A DNA stretch of 64,000 nt from Amoebophrya sp. A120 (Eukaryota; Protista; Dinoflagellata): positions 3,219,144 through 3,283,143 of the forward strand of contig CAJINV010000012.1 of the NCBI GenBank assembly GCA_905178155.1. The letters are read 5' to 3'. Both the position numbers and the translations under genes were made by a program. Shown here one piece after another: positions 6,387 through 35,500 of this stretch. Under the pieces are notes generated by a model. It made no database searches. It had not been told where the DNA came from and saw only the letters and a program-made list of their open reading frames with translations. How positions within the stretch are numbered: position 1 is the first letter of the stretch; every line of letters begins with the position of its first letter.

Positions 6387-9300
6387 ATGAAGACGATCGC
6401 CGCAATTTCGGTTCTCGCGATCGCGGGACAAGCGGCCCGCCAGGTGCACCTCCACGAGGACGCGGACGCGGCCAAGTCTTTCTTGCTGGTGGACAAAGCC
6501 GCACCACGGGCGACCAGGATTCCGGCTCCAAGGGTCGTGGGCGGGAATGCGCGTTGCAAAGGCTACACCCCGGACTGCGAAGAAGCATTTCCGTTAAACG
6601 CGGACTGGAAAGCGAACTGCGACGCGGCGTGCGGCGGTACTACCAGTACAACACCAGCGGCTAGTACCAACATTGCCGAAGCCGGGCCCCCCGCACAGGC
6701 GGCGGCCGAACCGGTGTTCACACCTTGCAAGGGGAGCACCTCCGAAGTGGACGGCAGGATCTTGTACCCCGATTGTCCCCACGCTTTTCCCCGGAATCTT
6801 TGGTGGGAGGCTAGCTGCTTTTTCTCCTGCAAAACACCTTGCAGTGTCGAAATCGAGAATTGTGATTCAGATACAGCTTTTCCTTATGATGCCGACTGGA
6901 AGCCAATGTGCGAAGCGGTGTGCGCGGACGAGTCAGGATGGACAGTTCCGCGTGAACCGTGCTCCGCTGCCTTTCCCGACGTGTTTCCCGGCTGCGACGC
7001 AGAGGTTCGCTCCTACCAGAAAAGTTGGTGGAAGAAGAATCACTGCAGTCGAAAATGCGACGTGCTTATGCATTGCAAAAGTGTCATCTGGGTCTGGAAG
7101 GTTGCAACTTGTCATGCTACTTCTGGATCGTGCAAAAATCTGTGTTGCATGAATGCCAAAAGCTCTCCACTTTTGACCCAGTTGAGAGGAAGTTTCTCAT
7201 GCAGGAAAGGCATGATACGGAAACGGATCATACCCACAGAATCTGTCATGCTAGGTCCTGCATTCCAGACGACATGGATCATGGAAAATCTGCATGACAA
7301 GCATGGGAATCCTCCAGACCCAGACATTTTTGCATCTGATAGTGCTGGTGGAAGCAGCCCACGGCGGAAGTGTCCTTTGCTCCAACGTTTCCCGGGTGTT
7401 GTTTCCAGGGTGTAACGCCAAAGTTTCTTCGCGGAAGCCGCCGTGGTGGAAAGCGAGGCACTGCGGTGACTATTGCCGCGTCATGCACGACGAATCCGGT
7501 GGACAGCTCGATTCCTGTGCCGCTGTCTTTCCCGACTTGTATGAGGGATGCGACGAGAGAGTGTCTCGCGATATACCGTTGGAGCGCCAGCAGAAACAGT
7601 GCAGTGAAAATTGCGGAATCATGCTGCATGCTGCAGATCATGCGACCACCCATCACGACTTTAGAGTGCAACATCGCCGGGACGAGGCCGACATACGGGA
7701 TTATTGGTGCTCCTGGTATCCTGGCGCCATGTTTGCTGGATGTAAGGACGAGAAAGTTCCGGCTGGAATGTCGCTCGGTGCGACGAGGGAAGCGTGCCTG
7801 GACCTCTGTCCGTATTGCAACCACGTCATACCCTGGTCAGAGGACTCGTTCCTTGTTCATCGCAATTGGGGGTGTCAGGCCACAGTCCCTGCCGACTCGA
7901 AAAACCAACTCGAGGTCTGCAAGGCAGCATGCGAGGAGCAGCAGGTAGAATCGAATTCTTTGCTCCTCAGGGAGGGCGAGGGGCAACGTGAATATCACCC
8001 CGACCCCGAGCGGGAGCTGGCGAATGTGGGCGGACGCGTGGGGTGCAACGCATTGGAGGTGGATTGGACGTGTGACGAAACAGTTTCTGCAGGAATGTCG
8101 TTTGAGGAAACGAAGTCACAGTGCAGGGCACTGTGTGCCGGAAACCACGCGGAATCTTTCTTGCTGGTGGACAAAGCCGCACGGGCGACCAGGATTCCGG
8201 CGCCACGGGTCGTGGGCGGGAATGCCGGCGACGTTGGTACGACATCTAGTACCATATGTATCGCAATTATGTCTGTGTCTGGAGGAGTGCGAATGCCGAT
8301 GTTAATGTTTAGTCTATTGTTTGTGCACGATACAGAAACAGAAGGTCTAGCAAGCAGGCCATCACAAGTTTTGAAACCTTTTGTTCGGTAACAAGAACGT
8401 ATTGTCCATGAAATGCGCAGCACGAGTTTGCATCTCTCTCTAGATCCACCTGAAAAATTTGCAATGCATACAATGCCATTGCCAAAGCCTTATCAAAACT
8501 TGTGATGCTTCTACAGCTCGTGTTCGCATATTTATTCCCAGGTAGCGTTCTGGGTCATGCTAGACCTCCTGCATGACAAGCCTTGGAATGTTCCACAGAA
8601 CCCAGACACCTTTGCACTTGATAGGCTGCCGCCGAGCCGCCGATTATGGGTGGACGGGATGCGCAGTGCTCGGCTGTGGATTCGTTCATGTTTCCAGGAT
8701 GTGACGCGCAAGTTTCCGCGGGAATGTCGCCCAGTGCAACGAAGAACGCGTGCGTTGCGCGCTGCCCGAAGTGCGTCGACGTTGTCACGGATGAAGAATT
8801 CCAGGGCTATCGTGAATTCGGTTGCTGGGTCACTGTCTCTGCCGACGTACAAAATCCGCTAGAGCATTGCATGGCTGAATGCGCAGAACAGCAGAAATTC
8901 GCAGGTGCTTTACTGGGTCCAGATGAATCCAGCCAACAAGGTGTCCACCACACTTTATGCATTGCAAATAAGTACTATGTCTGGGTCTGTAGGACGGGAC
9001 TGAGTTTGTGATGCCAAGTTTTCGAGGCACGGAGTTCTGTATTGCATGAGAAGCAAAAGGACCCACATTTGGCAACGCAAAGACGATATATCTCATCCAG
9101 GATAGGCATTTTTACGGAGCCTTATCAAAACTTGTGATGCTTCTACAGCTTGCATACCGATACTAGGGGGCGTCCTGGGTCATGCTAGACCTCCTGCATG
9201 ACAAGCCTTGGAATGTTCCACAGAACCCAGACACCTTTGCACTTGATAGGCTGCCGCCGAGCCGCCGATTATGGGTGGACGGGATGCGCAGTGCTCGGCT

Positions 9301-10141
9301 CTGGATTCGTTCATGTTTCCAGGATGTGACGCGCAAGTTTCCGCGGGAATGTCGCCCAGTGCAACGAAGAACGCGTGCGTTGCGCGCTGCCCGAAGTGCG
9401 TCGACGTTGTCACGGATGAAGAATTCCAGGGCTATCGTGAATTCGGTTGCTGGGTCACTGTCTCTGCCGACGTACAAAATCCGCTAGAGCATTGCATGGC
9501 TGAATGCGCAGAACAGCAGAAATTCGCAGGTGCTTTACTGGGTCCAGATGAATCCAGCCAACAAGGTGTCCACCACACTTTATGCATTGCAAATAAGTAC
9601 TATGTCTGGGTCTGTAGGACGGGACTGAGTTTGTGATGCCAAGTTTTCGAGGCACGGAGTTCTGTATTGCATGAGAAGCAAAAGGACCCACATTTGGCAA
9701 CGCAAAGACGATATATCTCATCCAGGATAGGCATTTTTACGGAGCCTTATCAAAACTTGTGATGCTTCTACAGCTTGCATACCGATACTAGGGGGCGTCC
9801 TGGGTCATGCTAGACCTCCTGCATGACAAGCCTTGGAATGTTCCACAGAACCCAGACACCTTTGCACTTGATAGGCTGCCGCCGAGCCGCCGATTATGGG
9901 TGGACGGGATGCGCAGTGCTCGGCTGTGGATTCGTTCATGTTTCCAGGATGTGACGCGCAAGTTTCCGCGGGAATGTCGCCCAGTGAAACGAAGAACGCG
10001 TGCGCTGCGCGCTGCCTGAAGTGCGTCGACGTTGTCACGGATGAAGAATTCCAGGTCTATCGTGCATTGCATTGCCGGGCCACTTATGCCAAGAAAAATG
10101 CATTTACACTTAATACACAAGCAAGACAGCGGCCAATATGA
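6387..10141 (+). CDS. Secreted cysteine-rich repeat protein
   Basis: Signal peptide MKTIAAISVLAIAGQA; repeated C..FPGCD..V....C...C modules; SFLLVDKA..ATRIPAPRVVGGNA occurs twice. Exons join across introners; 3' end uncertain. Confidence 0.7.
7067..7341. mobile_element. TIR introner (family A)
   Basis: DR GTGCT; frame restored (CDVL|VEAAH). Confidence 0.92.
8255..8470. mobile_element. Degenerate TIR introner (family A-like)
   Basis: TATGTATCGCAATT...AATTTGCAATGCATA; DR not conserved. Confidence 0.65.
8491..8623. mobile_element. Truncated introner (right half only)
   Basis: Matches the 3' half of 8956-9248; begins at an internal TATCAA. Confidence 0.6.
8956..9248. mobile_element. TIR introner (family A) with non-matching flanks
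   Basis: TIRs present; flanks CACTT/GGCTG; removing element+5 nt keeps frame. Confidence 0.85.
9581..9873. mobile_element. TIR introner, copy of 8956-9248
   Basis: Part of the 625-bp repeat. Confidence 0.85.
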
Positions 10142-26500: not shown

Positions 26501-29500
26501 AGAGCTCCGTTTTTCTGTGATGCAGAAGCGCAGTAGTTTGTCATGCAGAGTAGGCAACACCTAGGATAGGAACTCAGAAACTTGTCATGTTGATTCAGCA
26601 TTTGTAGCCTCATCATGAGACGCCACCCAGCATCACAAGTTTCCAGACCCAGACATTTTTCCTTTTGATAGCAGTTTGGCGGAGACAAGTACAACAATGA
26701 TGGTGGCGGAGGGTCCTCGTTTGGATCGGCTTCCGAGTTCCATTCTGATGGTAAGACCGGCAAAAGTTCTTCTGGTAGAGGAAGCGAACCAGGTGGTAGT
26801 TGTAGCTCTTCCTCTCTGTCGCATAAGCAAAAGCGGCCACTCGTCACATCAGCAATCATTCACACGGAGGAGCTTTTGCCGCTTCTGGAAGCCTTTCACG
26901 AGCGCGCGGAAGACAACTCGGAGGAGCTATTACAGTGAAAAGTGCCCCCCACCCCTGAAATTGCAAAAATTTGTGATGCGAAGTTTCCAAATGAAAACTT
27001 TTTGTCATGCATGAAAGGAGTATGAATCTTTCTGATGCAGAGTCTAGGCATATATAGCATCGCTTGCATGACAAGAGCCGCTCTTCCTAGTTTCCCAACA
27101 TGACAAGAGCCGCTCTTCCTAGGGGCTTTTGCAATACAAACCTTTGCTATTCACGATTGAAAACCTGTGATGCTGATAGATCCAAGAGGGCGAATGTTTC
27201 ATTTGGAAAGGTTTGCAATACAAGTGCTCCCAAGTTCGGGGGTGGGGACATTTTTCATTGTAATAAGAGCTGTGCGGAGGGTCGTGGCAAGATTACTTCG
27301 CGACTTACGGGAGCGAGGTACTTACTTCATATTGTGGTGGACTTCTTCTTCATTTTCTATGACAAAAATTTCCTCATGTCAACCGGGACAAGTGTTGTTT
27401 CTGAACAATGGATGGTCCTCACTCCTGCTGCTTTGATGCCATTCCAGATCATTCCTGCTCATTGTTCCTGCGATATGGACACTGCAACGAACTTTGTATA
27501 TACTTTTTTACCTTTTTTGTACACTCAGGTCGCCATTCCCGGGTCGCCCGCGAATGCGGTGTTTGCGCAAAACCAGAAGCTTGCCCAGGTGCGTATGACC
27601 CGCTCAAACGTTACAATCTCAAACGTTACAATAAAATCTGGAATTTGTCTTGCATGATGAGCATGACAGAATCGCAGAGCACTCCACTTTCTGCAATACA
27701 AATTTCGCCAGATTCTAGCGCGGTTTGGGGCTCCGAAACTTGTCATGCGCAATCCTCCTGTGAGACTAAGTTAGCTCCTGCACTTCTTGCATCACAGATT
27801 TCCATATTCTACTGTAACGTTTGAGATTGTAACGGTTGAGCAAGTTATAGTGCGGAAGGCCCGGTTTGATTTTCGGGGCAAACGCGTCAGCATGATTAAC
27901 AACGCGCTGCTAGGCGGTACTGGTAGTATCGGAGCAAACCTACTACACTCCGGTAGCTCAGACAACCACGCATCTGCAAGCAGGTCGACTGACAATGCGC
28001 CGGTGTCCAAGCAGAATGGGCTAGCGCGGCAGAGTATGAACTGCAAATATGTCTGGGTCTGGAAGATTCTAGACTTGTAATGCTGTCTCTGGATTCTAGA
28101 AAAATTTGTATTGCATGACCAGCAAGAGGACTCCAGTTTGTGCTACGCGGAAAGGGCATCTCTCATGCGGTAGAGGCGTCACAAAGTCCTCTAAAAATCT
28201 GTGATGCTAGGGCATGCATCACAGACATCATGGATCATTCAAAATATGCATGACAAACCTGGCTTTCTTCCAGACCCAGACATTTTTGCAGTTGATACAG
28301 AGTTTGGTGACCAATGCGTTGGTGAATTTCAACCGGGGCAGGGGAGGCGGCCCGGGTATTGAGAGGAAAGATCCCCCCTCCCCATACCGAAGCAGTGTGC
28401 TTCCGAAAATTTGTCTTGCTGATTTGAGACCACAAATCACGTCTGTCTTGCAAGAAGACAACTCCACAGGCTCTGCCGCATTACGCAGGCGATTTGTGAT
28501 GCTGTTGGGCCTACAGCATAGACGTTTCCCATGCTAAGCGCCTAGGCCAAAACCTCTCCGCTCAGGCTTGGCAGGGGCCTGCAGTCCGCTACTGCAAGAC
28601 AGATCTGAGCTGTGTACGCACGTCCAGCATCAGAAATTTCCTCCTGATATGGGGAGGGGGGGGCTTTTCCTTTTGATATCAGGGGGCCATAATTCATCTG
28701 GTTACAGCGAGGAAGACTGGACGCAGGCAGGCGGCAGAACCGGCGCGTCGGGACAAGATCAGGATTTGAACAGCATGCTGCGGCTGCACAACATGCTGAA
28801 AAAACAGGAGGAAGAGATGGAAGTATCCTGTGCAAAAGCATCGTACTCGTATTGCAATCATGCATTGCAAATCTTCTTGTTATAGGTAAATCCGCATTAC
28901 AAATTTTATTTCTCATGCTGAGAAAATTTGCAATGCATTTATACGAGTGCGATACTTTTGCAGTTCATAGGATGAGGAGCGGAATTATTTCCTAAAACAG
29001 CTGAAGGTCGAAACCGCCAGCTTGCAGGACTTGAAAACGCTATCCTGAGAAAAAAACTGTATCACTGTGAACCTATGATGCAGAAAATGAAACACAAAAC
29101 TATTTGTCTTGCTACACACGGAAGGCATTGGATTTTCCAGCGTGGTTTCCCTTCGGGAGTGCGCATAGTTGTGTTGCTGGTCCTGTGCCAGTCGCGGGGC
29201 ATGTTCGGGTGTTCCGGGCCGTGCATTGTGCACCCCTCGGACCCCGCACCCCCCCGGGCTTTAGTCGCGCAGTCTGTTAAGCATGACAAATTTTCACTGC
29301 CATGTGTAAAAAACCTGTGATGCAGATCTTGCAAAATCATCACAGTTAAACAGTTTTTTCGTGGGATAAACGCTCTTGAAAAAGTACTACACAACAACTA
29401 CGAGAAGTACTTCTTCTAGTACTTCTAGCACAACGGCAGGATCTTCAGGCTCTACTTCATCCCTGGGAAAGAATTATGGTCCTCAACAATTCGGTGCCTC

Positions 29501-32500
29501 GCCGAACAAAGCGCATTCCGGCTCAACTGCTTCTTTTCACCCATCCGGAGGGAGCAATGGCGCCAATAGTACTTCTTCTTCCTCTGCAAAAACGTCGGGG
29601 GCAGGGGCGGGCGGAGGTCCTGCGTCTTTTGGGCGGCGCATCACACTGCGAACGGTAGCAGAATTGCTGGTGATGTTTGGCGTTTTATGCAACAGAAAAA
29701 CTACCCGGCGCGGACCATTTTGTTCACGCAAGTTTTACATGATTGGAGCTTACTTTTTATATTCGAGCATGACAAGGTTTCGTTGCAGTGCACAGAAATT
29801 CAAGTTTAAGCAGGGAGTAAATCACATAAGGCCGCTAAGAAGCTTGACTGTGATGCATCTTTATTTTCCACACTGTCTGAATTGAATCTTTGTAATTGCA
29901 AAATCAGTGCGCAAAAGCGATTGGTGCGTTCCGGTGCTTTTTCCCTTGCATTCGCTTTGCCAAATGCGCTTCATGAGATTCGCGCTTTGGAGGAGCTGGC
30001 GCGACTCGTGGCTGCTGACGCTTGTAGTAAGAATCGCGACAGCTCCTGCACCAGTTCCAAAAATAATCTTCCACAAGAACATTTCAGCAGTACAATGCTC
30101 ACGACCGACCGGAATAAAGCAGGAGATGAAAATTACGGCACGAGCAGGTCTTCTTACAAGAGCCAGCAAAGTAGGTGGAGCAACTACAAAACCGGTACAA
30201 GACCCAACAAGCAAAATTATAATGGTCACCACCACCTCCAAGACCAGCAACAACTTTTCACGTTCGATCAGTTTATGACCTTGATTGCCCTTATCAACTG
30301 CAAAAATGTCTGGGTCTGGAAGATTGCCAGGTTTGTCATGCATATTTTGAATGACCCAGCATGATGTCTGTGATGCATGCCCTAGCGTCACAGATTTCTA
30401 GAACAATTCGCGATGCCTCTACCGCATGAGAAATGCCCCCTCCGCGTAGCACAAACTGGAGTCCTCTTGCTGGTCACGCAATACAAATTTTTTTAGAATC
30501 CAGAGACAGCATGACAAGTTTAGAATCTTCCAGACCCAGACATATTTGCAATCCATAGCCCTGATCCGCAAGTGGAAACGGTCGCAGCGGGAAATGTATC
30601 AACTGTAAAAATGTCTGGGTCTGGAAGATTCCGGGATTTGTGATGCATATTTTGTATGATCCATGATTCATGTAATGCATGATCTAGCATCACAGATTTT
30701 TAGAGTGCTTCCTGATGCCTATTCCGCATGACAAATGCCCTCTCCGCGTAGGGGGGACTCTGATGCCCTCTCCGCTTCCTGATGCTCGGGGGGACTCTGA
30801 TGTTTCTCCCGGGCGTAGAAATTGTAGCAGAATTTTTGGAAGAAGTTTTTGACGAAGAAGGGAGAACAAACAGAGAAAGACTGCAGAAAGCAGAGGCTAA
30901 GCTGCGCACGAGAATAGCAAGGCTATACAAGGGAGGGGACATAGACACAAGCTTTCGGGACTACGACCACCGGACGGAGGTGGACGAAATATACCAAAAG
31001 GAGGCCGGACCACCAGTAACGGGATATAGGAGAGGAGAAAAAGTCACAACAGGGCAAGGGAAAGAGAAGAAGGGCGAAAAAGCAAGAAAGACGGAATTTC
31101 GATACTACATGGGAAACCTCCCGCATGACAACAAGAGAAAATGGACCCTAGCGGTTCAATATGTGGACGACGGGACCATTGTCCTGAAGTTTTTTGTAGA
31201 AGATATAGAAGTGGTAGCGGCAGCATTGAAAGCAGCAAGCTGGGCGTACCAAAAAATATATGAAACAGAAGGACAATTTCTGGCGCCCCTGAAGTGTGAA
31301 TTTGCCACGTCGCTGAAAGACCCTGCGAAAATCAGCATTCTGCGGCAGGCTTTCCAGCCTTTTGGAATAATGTTCGAAGAGAAGGACTTCCTGAAGATCT
31401 TAGGAATAAGGATAGTGCCAACGAACAAGGAGGGACAGCGCAAGGCTCTCAGGAGCCAAGTTCAGCAAAGCATAGGAATAGGGCAGCATCTGGCTTACCA
31501 GGTAATGTCAAGACGGAAAAAGCTAGAGGGGGAGGAGCTGGTGTGGATAATCCAAGTGTTCTTTGTGTCGTCGATGATATACTTTCTACCGGTGATGCAG
31601 CTCTATTTCGACATGCAGGACTGGGCGACAATGCTAGGAGAAATATCGCTAACAATAGCAGAGACGATAGGGATGACAGAGGAAACGGTGGAAGAACTGA
31701 TGAGAAAGACGAACACAAATGCAGAAACATTCTACCGCGTAGTTTTCGGGGCGAAAATGCTAGGAATTACAGACCCTATCACGCTGGGGCTGAAAACACT
31801 AAGAGCAACAGCCCAAGCAAACTACTTGACAGACCCGGGGGGTTTCATCCAAATGGCAACAATGCCACTCAAAGTAGTGGGGGAGTCGAAGGCAGGAATA
31901 GCAAGAGCTGTGGAAAGAAAAATAATGAAGAGAAAAGAAGCTGACATAGCACTACTGCAAGCACTCAGAGACGGAGCATCGGTGAGGTTGTCTGCGGGGA
32001 GCGACCTGCGGGGGGTAGGAATAGTAGGAAAAACTAACAAAGCAAAACCGCAGATGGTACAAAGCCAACACGTGTACAGATGCGACAGGAGTCTGCTTGC
32101 GGACAAAATAAGAACAGGGGGGAAAGGCAAGAAAGGACAGAGTGACTACATGACGAAAATATGGGTAAAACACACGAAAAAAGAAGAAGCTACGATGGTA
32201 ACAGTAGAGGAATGGAAGGGGAAAGAAGAACACATGGCAACAATTGAAACGAGGCAGGACCACCTAAAGACAGAAGTTAGGACAGAAGAGCGAAAATTCG
32301 TAGCGTATTGCAATAACGCCATAAGAGCAATAGAGATGGTGAAGAAACAGCAACACGAAGGGAGTGGAGGAGTGTGCGTGTGCTTGCTGGATTACGACGA
32401 GATGAAAGAGAAAACACGGGGGCTTCTGCGGAAAGAGCAAGGGATAGCGTTAGAGCTGCAGGAGGAAATAGAAAAAGCAGAAAAACAGATTCCGGGCTTA

Positions 32501-35500
32501 ACAATAGTCAGACGCTGGGGAAAGCAGAACGCGCCAAAAACCCTCGAAAAAAGAGAAACACAAGGGGGCTATACAGAAGCGATACCCTTAAAGGTAGCAA
32601 ACGTGTCGAAGCATGATGATGAATATGCTGAATGGGTTCAGTACGATTTCGGCGAAAAAAATGTACCGACAAAACCGATCTGGGAATGGCCGGAAATGTC
32701 AAAAATAGAAAGACAAGTGTATACCTACCGGAAGATTATAGGAGACGAAAAGAAAGACGGGAAGAAAGCGGAGGAGGGAGGCGGTGACGGCGAGGACGAC
32801 AGAAGGAAAGACAGCACAGGAGAGAGGAAGGGGAAGGAGGCAAGTAGCAGCGCGAAGGAGAAAGCTCGCTGCGGAAAAGACCCCAAAGGGAACACTGCGA
32901 CGACAGACACGAGCAGGGAGATAGTCAGCGGGTCATTAGCAGAAACTATCAGAAAAATGGTAGAAGGAGAAAAGATAAGAGCACAGAAAGAAGGAAACGA
33001 AATGCTGCAGAGGGCGCTGGACATAATAGGAAGAGCCACAGACCTACTAGAAACAGCCGAAGACGTTCCATTAGAATCTCGCGCGACGTCGAGCAGCAGC
33101 AACAGGAGGGACATGCCGGAAATAACAGAAGAGCGAAAGGAATCAAAAGAAGAAGAAGAGAACGAAATAGAAGAAGATGTGTATTTCTCCCCGGCGCAGG
33201 AGTACCAGGGAAGCCGCTCAGGATACGTGTACAAACTCGGGCGCTTTGGCATGGGGTATTATAAGGATCAAGGACCGGAGGAGGCAACGCGGGAGATGTT
33301 CCAAAAAATTACGATAGGGGGGCCTGGAGGAAAACTGCCTAAGAGGGAAATCTCGAAAGAACAGAAAACAGCGAAAAAAGAAGTCACAGGGGATGCGACG
33401 CGACAAGAGAAGAACACGCAGCAAGTGCGCAAAGTGGCAGAGGAGGAGGAGGAAATAGAAATGACATCACGAGAAGCAGAAGAACCAGGCGGAGAGGGGA
33501 GATCAGGAAGTCTGAGAAAGAAAACCGCCAAAGACATAAGCGAAACAGTGAGGGAGAAAGAAGATGAAAAGGAAGAGGAAAGATTTCCAACATTGGAGGA
33601 GCTGAACGAGAGGGACCGGAAGCGGGACCGCGAAGAGGCAGCAGAACGGGAGGAGGAGCGCAAACGGCAGGAAGAAAGGAGATCTATGAAAAGACCGAAG
33701 TATGATAATGCATTACAGGAAGAGTTAGCCCAAATGTTTAGGAACACGCACTGAAAAACGATGACGAAAGAGATGTTGAAAATAATGAAAAGAAAGAAAG
33801 AGAACGGAACAGAAGGGCGAAAATGGGGGAGTAGTGTTCTGGGTGTCGGCGGAGGGAAGAGGAAGCAGAGGAAAGAAAAAGAAAGAAAAAATGGCTCCCT
33901 CGGTCGTCTCAGCTAGCCTGCAAGGGCTCCGTTTCCGCCAGCTGAAAGGCACGGCGCTGCTAATCATCTCGTCCTCGCCAGCCAATAGGCACGGCGCTGC
34001 TATCCCGTCGTCGTCAACGCGTCCCTTTTACTAGTAGGTGGGAACAGGGTTGCTAATTTAAAGACTGCGCTAAGGCAGCACCCCCCTTCCCCAAGGGGTC
34101 CCCCCGGGGCGGGCGCGGTGGCGGCTCTGCTAACGCGGAGCTTCAAAGTCCGACTCTACCTATGCGCATAAAAAGGGTGCGCGGATGCAGGTCGGTAAAG
34201 TGCTTGAAAGGGGTATGCTTTGGGGTTGCCCGTCATCGTGATAGGGTCAACGTGTGTGACCAATAGACCCCCTGTATACCTAGCGCGCAACCGACCACAG
34301 AAGCTGTAGCGTTAAATGTTTGTAAGAATAACCCAACAAGGCAACACTGGAGCTCCACCTTGCTCGAGGGCTTGGATGGTAAATCAGGTCAGCCACATCT
34401 AGCGCCCACTGGCCGTACTCATGCGTAAGCAATCGCAAGCGGTTCGGCGGATGCGGTCGGGTGGTACCTGTAGGACGTGGAACGGGTGTCCACCTAGGGG
34501 TATTGGCAGAGGCTAAATCTGTTCTAACGCCACGGTATTGGCAGAGGCTAAATCTGTTCTAACGCCACCCTGACAGGAGTCAAATGTCAAAACAACAACA
34601 ACAACGCGTAACACAAACTGGCCCCCTGTTGCTGGTCACGCAATACAGATTTTTTTGGGATCCAAAGACAGCATGACAAGTTGCAATTTTCCAGACCCAG
34701 ACATTTTTACAATCCATAAAATGAGGTTCTACCTCGCTTTTGCGAACAACGAACTCGATTTTTTCTTCCAAAAGTCCGTGCCAAGAGTGCTGGATCGGAT
34801 CTTCTCGGTGGTGCCCAAGTCACGGAATGAGCAGCAAACCTTGATTCTCGTTCTGAACCAAGAGTGGCCGGTATGCATTGCAAATATAATGTCTGTGTTT
34901 AGAAAGATGCAAGCCTACTTCTCATGCTGGTTTTGCATGACCTACCCATGAGGTGTGGAATGCGAGGCCTGGCATAACAGATTCTGTTGGATGTTGATCT
35001 CTATCATGCCTGTCCCGCATGAGCAACTTCCTTTCAAATTGGCCTAAAATGGGCAACTTGTGGGAATGAAGCAACACAGAATCTTTACATGATTCAGATT
35101 TGGCATGACAAGTTATCGCTTTCTTGCAGACACAGACACAATATTTGCAATGCATAGCCGGAATCGGAGGTGGCGGTGTGCAAGCGAGACTTTTTGAATG
35201 TTTGCCACCTGGTGGCGGAGCGGATGGAATCGGTGCGCGTGCGTACTTATCCTGTGCAAAAGTATCGTACTCGTACTAATCGCATTCATGCATTACAAAT
35301 TTCTCTTTCAGGTTAAATCCGCATTACAAATTTTCTTTCTCATGCTGAGGAAATGCGATTTCTACTAGTACGATGCTTTTGCGTTTCATAGTACTGAGAT
35401 GGAAAAGTATTGCAGTATGGGAGGTTTATTTTTCTCGCCTTCCGGAAGAGGACCACTTGCAGGGCGCGCTGCACAACAACACACTGGAACTACATCTCCC

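Follow-up and report, generated by a model that had tools for sequence, protein, structure and literature searches.

In a stretch of 64,000 nucleotides (nt) from the dinoflagellate Amoebophrya sp. A120 (assembly GCA_905178155.1, contig CAJINV010000012.1, forward-strand positions 3,219,144 to 3,283,143; hereafter the window, in whose coordinates all positions are given), the coding sequence of a host gene is interrupted by a composite intron of 4.1 kb. Our reading, to which we assign a probability of about 0.72, is that a truncated retrotransposon without long terminal repeats (a non-LTR element), likely inserted by target-primed reverse transcription, lies inside an introner bounded by terminal inverted repeats (TIRs), and that the flanking exons are joined exactly, likely by a non-canonical form of splicing that reads only the introner ends.

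The first-pass annotation of the window had described an introner split at CGCGTA by a 3,854-bp insert with a 6-bp target-site duplication (TSD), and all the coordinates given for this arrangement were verified. CGCGTA stands at 30745 and again at 34605; of the 18 sister introners that were aligned, 3 have it once at the homologous site. The insert spans 30751-34604, its first 30 bp being a junction patch and 30781 the start of the element proper. Self-comparison of the 64-kb window revealed neither a second copy of the insert nor long terminal repeats belonging to it. The introner, which would measure 262 bp when the insert is subtracted, is a member of a repeated family (18 related copies were aligned within the window) and has the features of A120 introners, namely, a TIR composed of TAT, seven bases and an A run, and a 5-nt direct repeat, AAATG, at 30592 and 34719. 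The TIRs are perfect over 23 bp (30604-30626 and 34689-34711), and 27 of the 30 terminal bases are paired. Both repeats are thus intact, as had been claimed, and removal of 4,127 nt leaves the host frame open. A strict scan of the window for TIRs with a direct repeat identified 24 elements, 23 of 143-321 bp and the 4,122-bp composite, which is 16.1 times the median length (256 bp) of the others; the roughly 16-fold increase noted at first pass is therefore correct.

Evidence for removal of the composite intron comes from contigs of the RNA-like sequencing runs X3, X4 and X6, which represent two samples of a single study, a different one from that of the DNA-like runs X1 and X2; the RNA nature of X3, X4 and X6 is guessed, but their contigs skip several introners at once. 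The joint 30591→34719 is present in one contig of each of the three RNA-like sets (depth 10 in X3, 6.8 in X6 and 5.9 in X4). It skips 4,127 nt, is letter-exact and in frame, and has the 5-nt repeat common to both sides. Also missing from these three contigs are 30287-30557, 34867-35156 and the introner after that. Their listed exon pieces show no differences, and by the record coordinates the small exons are left with 34 and 86 letters exactly (the latter checkable in X3 and X4). The joined host frame is open to its natural stop, and retention of the intron would lead to a stop three codons into it. GT..AG is absent from the composite ends in all six cut registers that can be drawn. The host gene is thus expressed and correctly spliced in the samples behind X3, X6 and X4; its nine exon-containing frames gave no Pfam match. 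The earlier proposal that excision tolerates a 16-fold longer introner is thus supported by exact joints in every RNA-like set, but these joints do not prove from which allele the RNA came, a question taken up below.

The insert had been credited with an open reading frame (ORF) resembling reverse transcriptase (RT). The window ORF alone is insufficient for this call, which holds by way of a longer copy. The window ORF has no Pfam family and no PDB sequence match, word-indexed searches returned no homologs (a weak test, as an exhaustive search gave eight), and its single-sequence structure model is unusable (predicted local distance difference test, pLDDT, 36.9). A scan of metagenome contigs gave two loci, one of them genuine (L001; JACKZZ010007342.1, 1-4117); the other, L002, is a chance motif match. 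L001 is 99.5% identical to the window element over 1,934 bp (10 differences), beginning at 30781, and carries 728 extra codons upstream. An exhaustive search with the L001 frame yielded eight homologs (P0001-P0008), of which seven are named, all from Amoebophrya. One of the eight, P0007, scores above the Pfam cut-off for Exo_endo_phos, and P0001 (E 4e-4) and P0006 (E 0.017) match endonuclease families below the cut-off. L001 itself has no Pfam match, although its endonuclease motifs align with those of the homologs. The RT-like motifs, including both aspartates of YVDD, are kept in an alignment of seven sequences.

A structure model was built from nine sequences (pLDDT 69.8), and L001 residues 391-1100 were compared with known structures. 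RTs of R2 and L1 fill the top 14 Foldseek rows (E values from 1e-9 to 1e-6), and the best VIA match is R2 (Z 21.9, root-mean-square deviation 4.7, 486 aligned residues). Like L1 ORF2p and the R2 protein (PDB 9hdo, 8c8j, 8gh6 and 9dou), the insert family has the RT fold over ~480 residues, an N-terminal endonuclease family (in the homologs), 5' truncation, a TSD and a simple-repeat tail. Unlike them, it has an insertion of ~125 residues before YVDD, no Pfam RVT match and named homologs only in Amoebophrya, and the identity amounts to only 10-13%. Homologs and model together support classification of the insert among the non-LTR elements of apurinic/apyrimidinic endonuclease (APE) type, where it represents a very divergent lineage. 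The TSD, the simple-repeat 3' tail, the 5' truncation and the absence of LTRs are all those of a non-LTR element. An APE endonuclease N-terminal to the RT is present at the family level and absent from the window copy, which begins mid-RT and has neither the first RT half nor the first catalytic motif. Residues near 32378 give an RNase H-like impression at most. The cargo is therefore likely dead, and the window copy is, judging from its sequence, probably inactive and unable to move itself. The 3' untranslated region (UTR) folds no better than shuffled sequences (z 0.36), no Rfam family was found in 30200-35200 beyond a chance match (E 3.2), with none within the 3' UTR, and a 24-nt pattern from the 3' end had no match in viral and genome contigs. 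Synonymous changes account for 16 of the 37 listed ORF differences between copies, against 21-32% expected, a weak sign of selection that we did not use.

The TSD, the four CAA units and the 5' truncation are consistent with target-primed reverse transcription, which is the likely route of entry; the (CAA)n tail noted at first pass is present, but with only these four units. In the probable course of events, the introner was nicked at CGCGTA by a full-length relative that carried the endonuclease, reverse copying of the relative's RNA began at the CAA tail, and synthesis halted inside the RT; the 5' end was then joined as the template switched over short stretches of element and target. Jumps of this sort are a known feature of 5' junctions made in non-LTR integration. 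The patch at 30751-30780 comprises 15 nt from the element (30788-30802), 13 nt from the target (30735-30747) and 12 nt from the target (30707-30718), and the pieces have overlaps of 3, 2 and 5 nt ahead of the element proper. The insertion would have been tolerated because the TIRs and the direct repeat were left untouched, so that, in a genome dense in genes, the introner may serve the element as a safe haven, though a passive one. The DNA-like contigs indicate a multi-copy family, with roughly two to three copies near 99% and one or two near 92% identity over the ORF, and their depth climbs steeply towards the element 3' end.

One alternative is that the allele with the insertion is polymorphic or disabling, that the spliced RNA came from the empty 262-bp introner, and that the composite is spliced poorly or never. 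We regard this as unlikely. The junction evidence consists of 11 listed joints from two DNA-like and two RNA-like runs, and statements about contigs hold among those listed. Several observations weigh against our reading. No listed contig bridges either insert junction, and the DNA-like contigs all carry a non-window letter at several ORF sites (e.g., 30853, 30871 and 31009). A near-empty joint, 30746→34607, is found in X1 and X2, where its depth is that of a single copy, and also in X6, and three X1 contigs begin at 34605, preceded by introner letters. The sole RNA-like contig listed for the ORF disagrees with the window in 2 letters out of 165, the RNA nature of the runs is only a guess, and the DNA-like runs belong to another study. 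The window copy is also young, as indicated by its few differences from L001 and its intact TSD and ORF. The non-window letters could be explained by bubble-popping among two to three near-identical copies, but also by absence of the copy. As for the empty-site allele, for which the first-pass annotation had proposed a check, the near-empty joint was found, but it shares four letters where identity predicts six, and the exact joint, 30744→34605, is absent among the 11. Thousands of sister introners are able to supply near-empty forms, and contig building drops variants of close copies; we read the near-empty forms and the contigs starting at 34605 as sister introners, with an empty allele as the alternative. 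Furthermore, the exon pieces are letter-identical to the window, DNA-like contigs covering 32452-32626 and 32732-32910 show no differences from the window copy, and annotated A120 introns are reported to reach 35,152 bp (PMC7789003). The safe-haven proposal made at first pass follows if the insertion-bearing allele is the one spliced. The unbridged junctions could also be taken to mean that an introner and a repeat were fused in assembly. This we consider scarcely credible, because the 5' junction patchwork uses the introner's own target bases: the TSD, the tail and the patch of upstream introner sequence are what integration produces, whereas overlapping of reads would not produce them. The window sequence, moreover, contains no N.

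A different question is whether the family actively prefers the central introner region, as Tx1 does a DNA transposon, and exploits excision to live inside exons. This is compatible with our reading except for the word passive, and we hold it to be possible but doubtful. Introners had been proposed at first pass as preferred targets, and two more copies do adjoin an introner near the site. At the joint 30745→33902, a truncated copy lies next to the left introner half (X1, depth 45.9 with a 31-letter side; X2, 32.7 with 29), and the joint 30737→34045, with four letters between, reveals a second (X2, 26.9 with 23). Both are 5'-truncated and lie 5 and 13 bp from the insertion site. Random insertion predicts 0.02-0.47 such copies, with a probability of 0.0001-0.08 for two or more (a rough Poisson estimate over 24 parameter sets, in which copy numbers came from summed depth, which is unreliable, and the window density was scaled to the published 115.5 Mb). 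The family also has an APE-type endonuclease, as do the target-specific Tx1 and R1 clades (PMC4640811, in its available text). On the other hand, summed depth suggests ~23-126 copies of the 3' end (a rough figure, depth being no true copy number), and two of the four other CGCGTA-bearing introners of the window would be visible to the joint test, so that strict targeting predicts tens of joints and not two. The letters between the sides of 30745→33902 are unread, 30737→34045 depends on a 23-letter side in a single run, and both could be deletion derivatives of the composite locus. L001 has no introner motif in 5.9 kb, compared with 186 in the 64-kb window, though its own 3' end is missing, and X3 record 23 (RNA-like) extends 367 letters beyond the element 3' end with no alignment to the introner half. 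The 3' flanks of other copies are unreadable from the contigs, the tail probably being repeat-masked. A loose preference for the central part of introners is accordingly a tentative suggestion, and strict targeting of the CGCGTA site is unlikely. Along the same lines, and just as speculatively, a divergent non-LTR lineage specific to Amoebophrya might prefer the centre of TIR introners as a hyperparasite hidden inside exons, since the host's splicing would take out whatever stands between two introner ends, several of the A120 "retro-derived introners" being such nests. The two extra joints could, alternatively, be deleted copies of a duplicated composite, in line with the first-pass suggestion that the composite moves as a TIR unit with RT cargo. 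Its TIRs and direct repeat are intact, and TIR-bounded A120 introners with retroelement-like ORFs have been described in near-identical copies (family 38, PMC12130899, as far as its available text goes). Nevertheless, the suggestion is unsupported and we judge it very improbable that the composite is, or could become, such a unit: its RT is missing both the endonuclease and the first of the catalytic motifs, no second composite was found in the window or the listed contigs, the listed DNA contig that reaches 30781 runs into other sequence and not into the composite's junction, and the available text of PMC7789003 reports no transposase for A120.

We return to our reading of a non-LTR element lodged in an ordinary introner and compare it with known systems. 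The composite shares with the A120 introner elements described by Farhat et al. 2021 (PMC7789003) the TAT, seven bases and A run, the border direct repeat and the non-canonical sites, the published elements being ~250 nt. That intron analysis was limited to 40-1000 bp, and its main text contains neither a 4.1-kb composite with an inner retrotransposon nor the word "nested". With annotated introns of up to 35 kb, 4.1 kb is no length record for A120, but composites fell outside the published introner study. The available text of the same paper reports that U1 was not found in Amoebophrya and proposes a hairpin model for introner removal. In Euglena non-canonical introns, small central changes are tolerated and changes at the ends are not (PMC12501133, available text), which is consistent with end-defined intron removal. 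Gozashti et al. 2025 (PMC12130899, available text) attributed A120 introners to non-LTR and LTR elements and described TIR-bounded A120 introners with retroelement-like ORFs. In supplementary file 8 of that paper, whose A120 rows, 58 in number, were all covered, short TIR families carry labels for long interspersed nuclear elements (LINEs) from blast (fam16 and fam6) or RT domains (PF00078, fam9); the unlabelled end coordinates of these families, 7-24 kb, are taken here as alignment lengths. Such elements were published as introner classes, and the main text does not use "nested" or "cargo". In contrast to this class treatment, the present locus demonstrates, base by base, that such a case can consist of an ordinary TIR introner with a LINE lodged in it, and the LINE and RT labels on short TIR families may be explicable by nested inserts like the composite. 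A further parallel is Tx1: in both cases an APE-type non-LTR element resides inside a TIR element of non-autonomous appearance, read as a safe haven. For Tx1, site specificity has been demonstrated, whereas here there are only hints of it; the target at the Amoebophrya locus is itself an intron within coding sequence, and no clade kinship is implied. A literature search, with most subscription papers and some supplements outside its reach, did not turn up any paper describing a LINE that lies inside an introner or targets one. A120 introners, nested transposable elements and Tx1-like targeting were all known already.

The locus amounts to a natural insertion experiment, in which 3.85 kb of foreign sequence was placed in the middle of an introner with the ends untouched and the exons are still exactly joined. 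If the allele is confirmed, then internal length and central sequence would be irrelevant to excision, and the ends would be sufficient. The locus also offers a plainer reading for the TIR-bounded "retro" introners of A120 and exposes a non-LTR lineage missed by Pfam. Transposable elements in introns are ordinary in themselves, and only true targeting would be very surprising.

Features of the composite intron and its surroundings (window coordinates).
Feature	Position	Strand	Basis
Upstream host exon, 34 nt	30558..30591	+	34 record letters between flanking joints, X3/X4/X6 contigs
AAATG, left copy of the 5-bp direct repeat	30592..30596	+	Sequence; five letters common to both sides of the joint
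Introner 5' half including left TIR (perfect part 30604-30626)	30597..30750	+	128/154 identity to introner 30292-30557
CGCGTA, left TSD copy	30745..30750	+	Single copy in 3/18 sister introners
5' junction patch, 30 bp	30751..30780	+	Element and target pieces
5'-truncated non-LTR retrotransposon, host-gene strand	30781..34604	+	L001 match starts at 30781, 99.5%; same start in DNA contig X1 record 1
ORF2 remnant, 990 open codons	30782..33754	+	Second half of RT (YVDD at 31160), thumb, charged C-terminal region
3' UTR with perfect 35-bp tandem duplication (34499-34568)	33755..34592	+	Sequence
(CAA)4 tail	34593..34604	+	Sequence
Introner 3' half, right TSD copy (34605-34610) to right TIR (perfect part 34689-34711)	34605..34718	+	100/114 identity to introner 30292-30557
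Downstream host exon, right AAATG at its start	34719..34866	+	148 letters, 0 differences, X3/X4/X6 contigs
Empty sister introner next door, 266 bp, GCCCT repeat	30292..30557	+	Skipped by the same contigs as the composite

Additional observations were made on the element family. The homologs P0001-P0008 are endonuclease-RT proteins of 1,400-1,750 amino acids from Amoebophrya AT5.2, A120 and A25, with an RVT Pfam match in none of the eight; the predicted P0002 also includes a V-SNARE domain, probably through the merging of gene models. L001 breaks off at window position 32714; the 5.9 kb around it are devoid of all five introner motifs, and its neighbour is an intron-free gene of 682 amino acids. 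This setting may be a region free of introners, or it may belong to another strain or species, which would suggest recent horizontal transfer. One X2 contig departs from the element 3' end (34586) with (TAC)n in place of (CAA)n, as in a related subfamily with another tail. In an X4 contig, unrelated GC-rich sequence is joined to an introner at 30709, possibly another insertion in a sister introner.

The host gene appears in the RNA-like contigs in a second version corresponding to window 27850-29730, which over 180 nt shows 5 differences along with 3 gap letters. This version, a paralog or an allele, reaches a depth of 112 in X6, has the same joint places and takes a different course past 29730. 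The skip of introner 28357-28679 (28339-28697) has 30 letters between its sides that are slightly unlike the window in all three RNA-like runs, and either belongs to the second gene version or reflects an imprecise join. Six of 11 sequencing runs (X1-X4, X6 and X9) were compared with the window; of these, the raw-read run X9 made contact with introner ends only and was uninformative on the composite locus. Elsewhere in the window, 8486-10084 is a tandem array of ~625-630-bp units that are 92-97% identical, with introner-like pieces in each.

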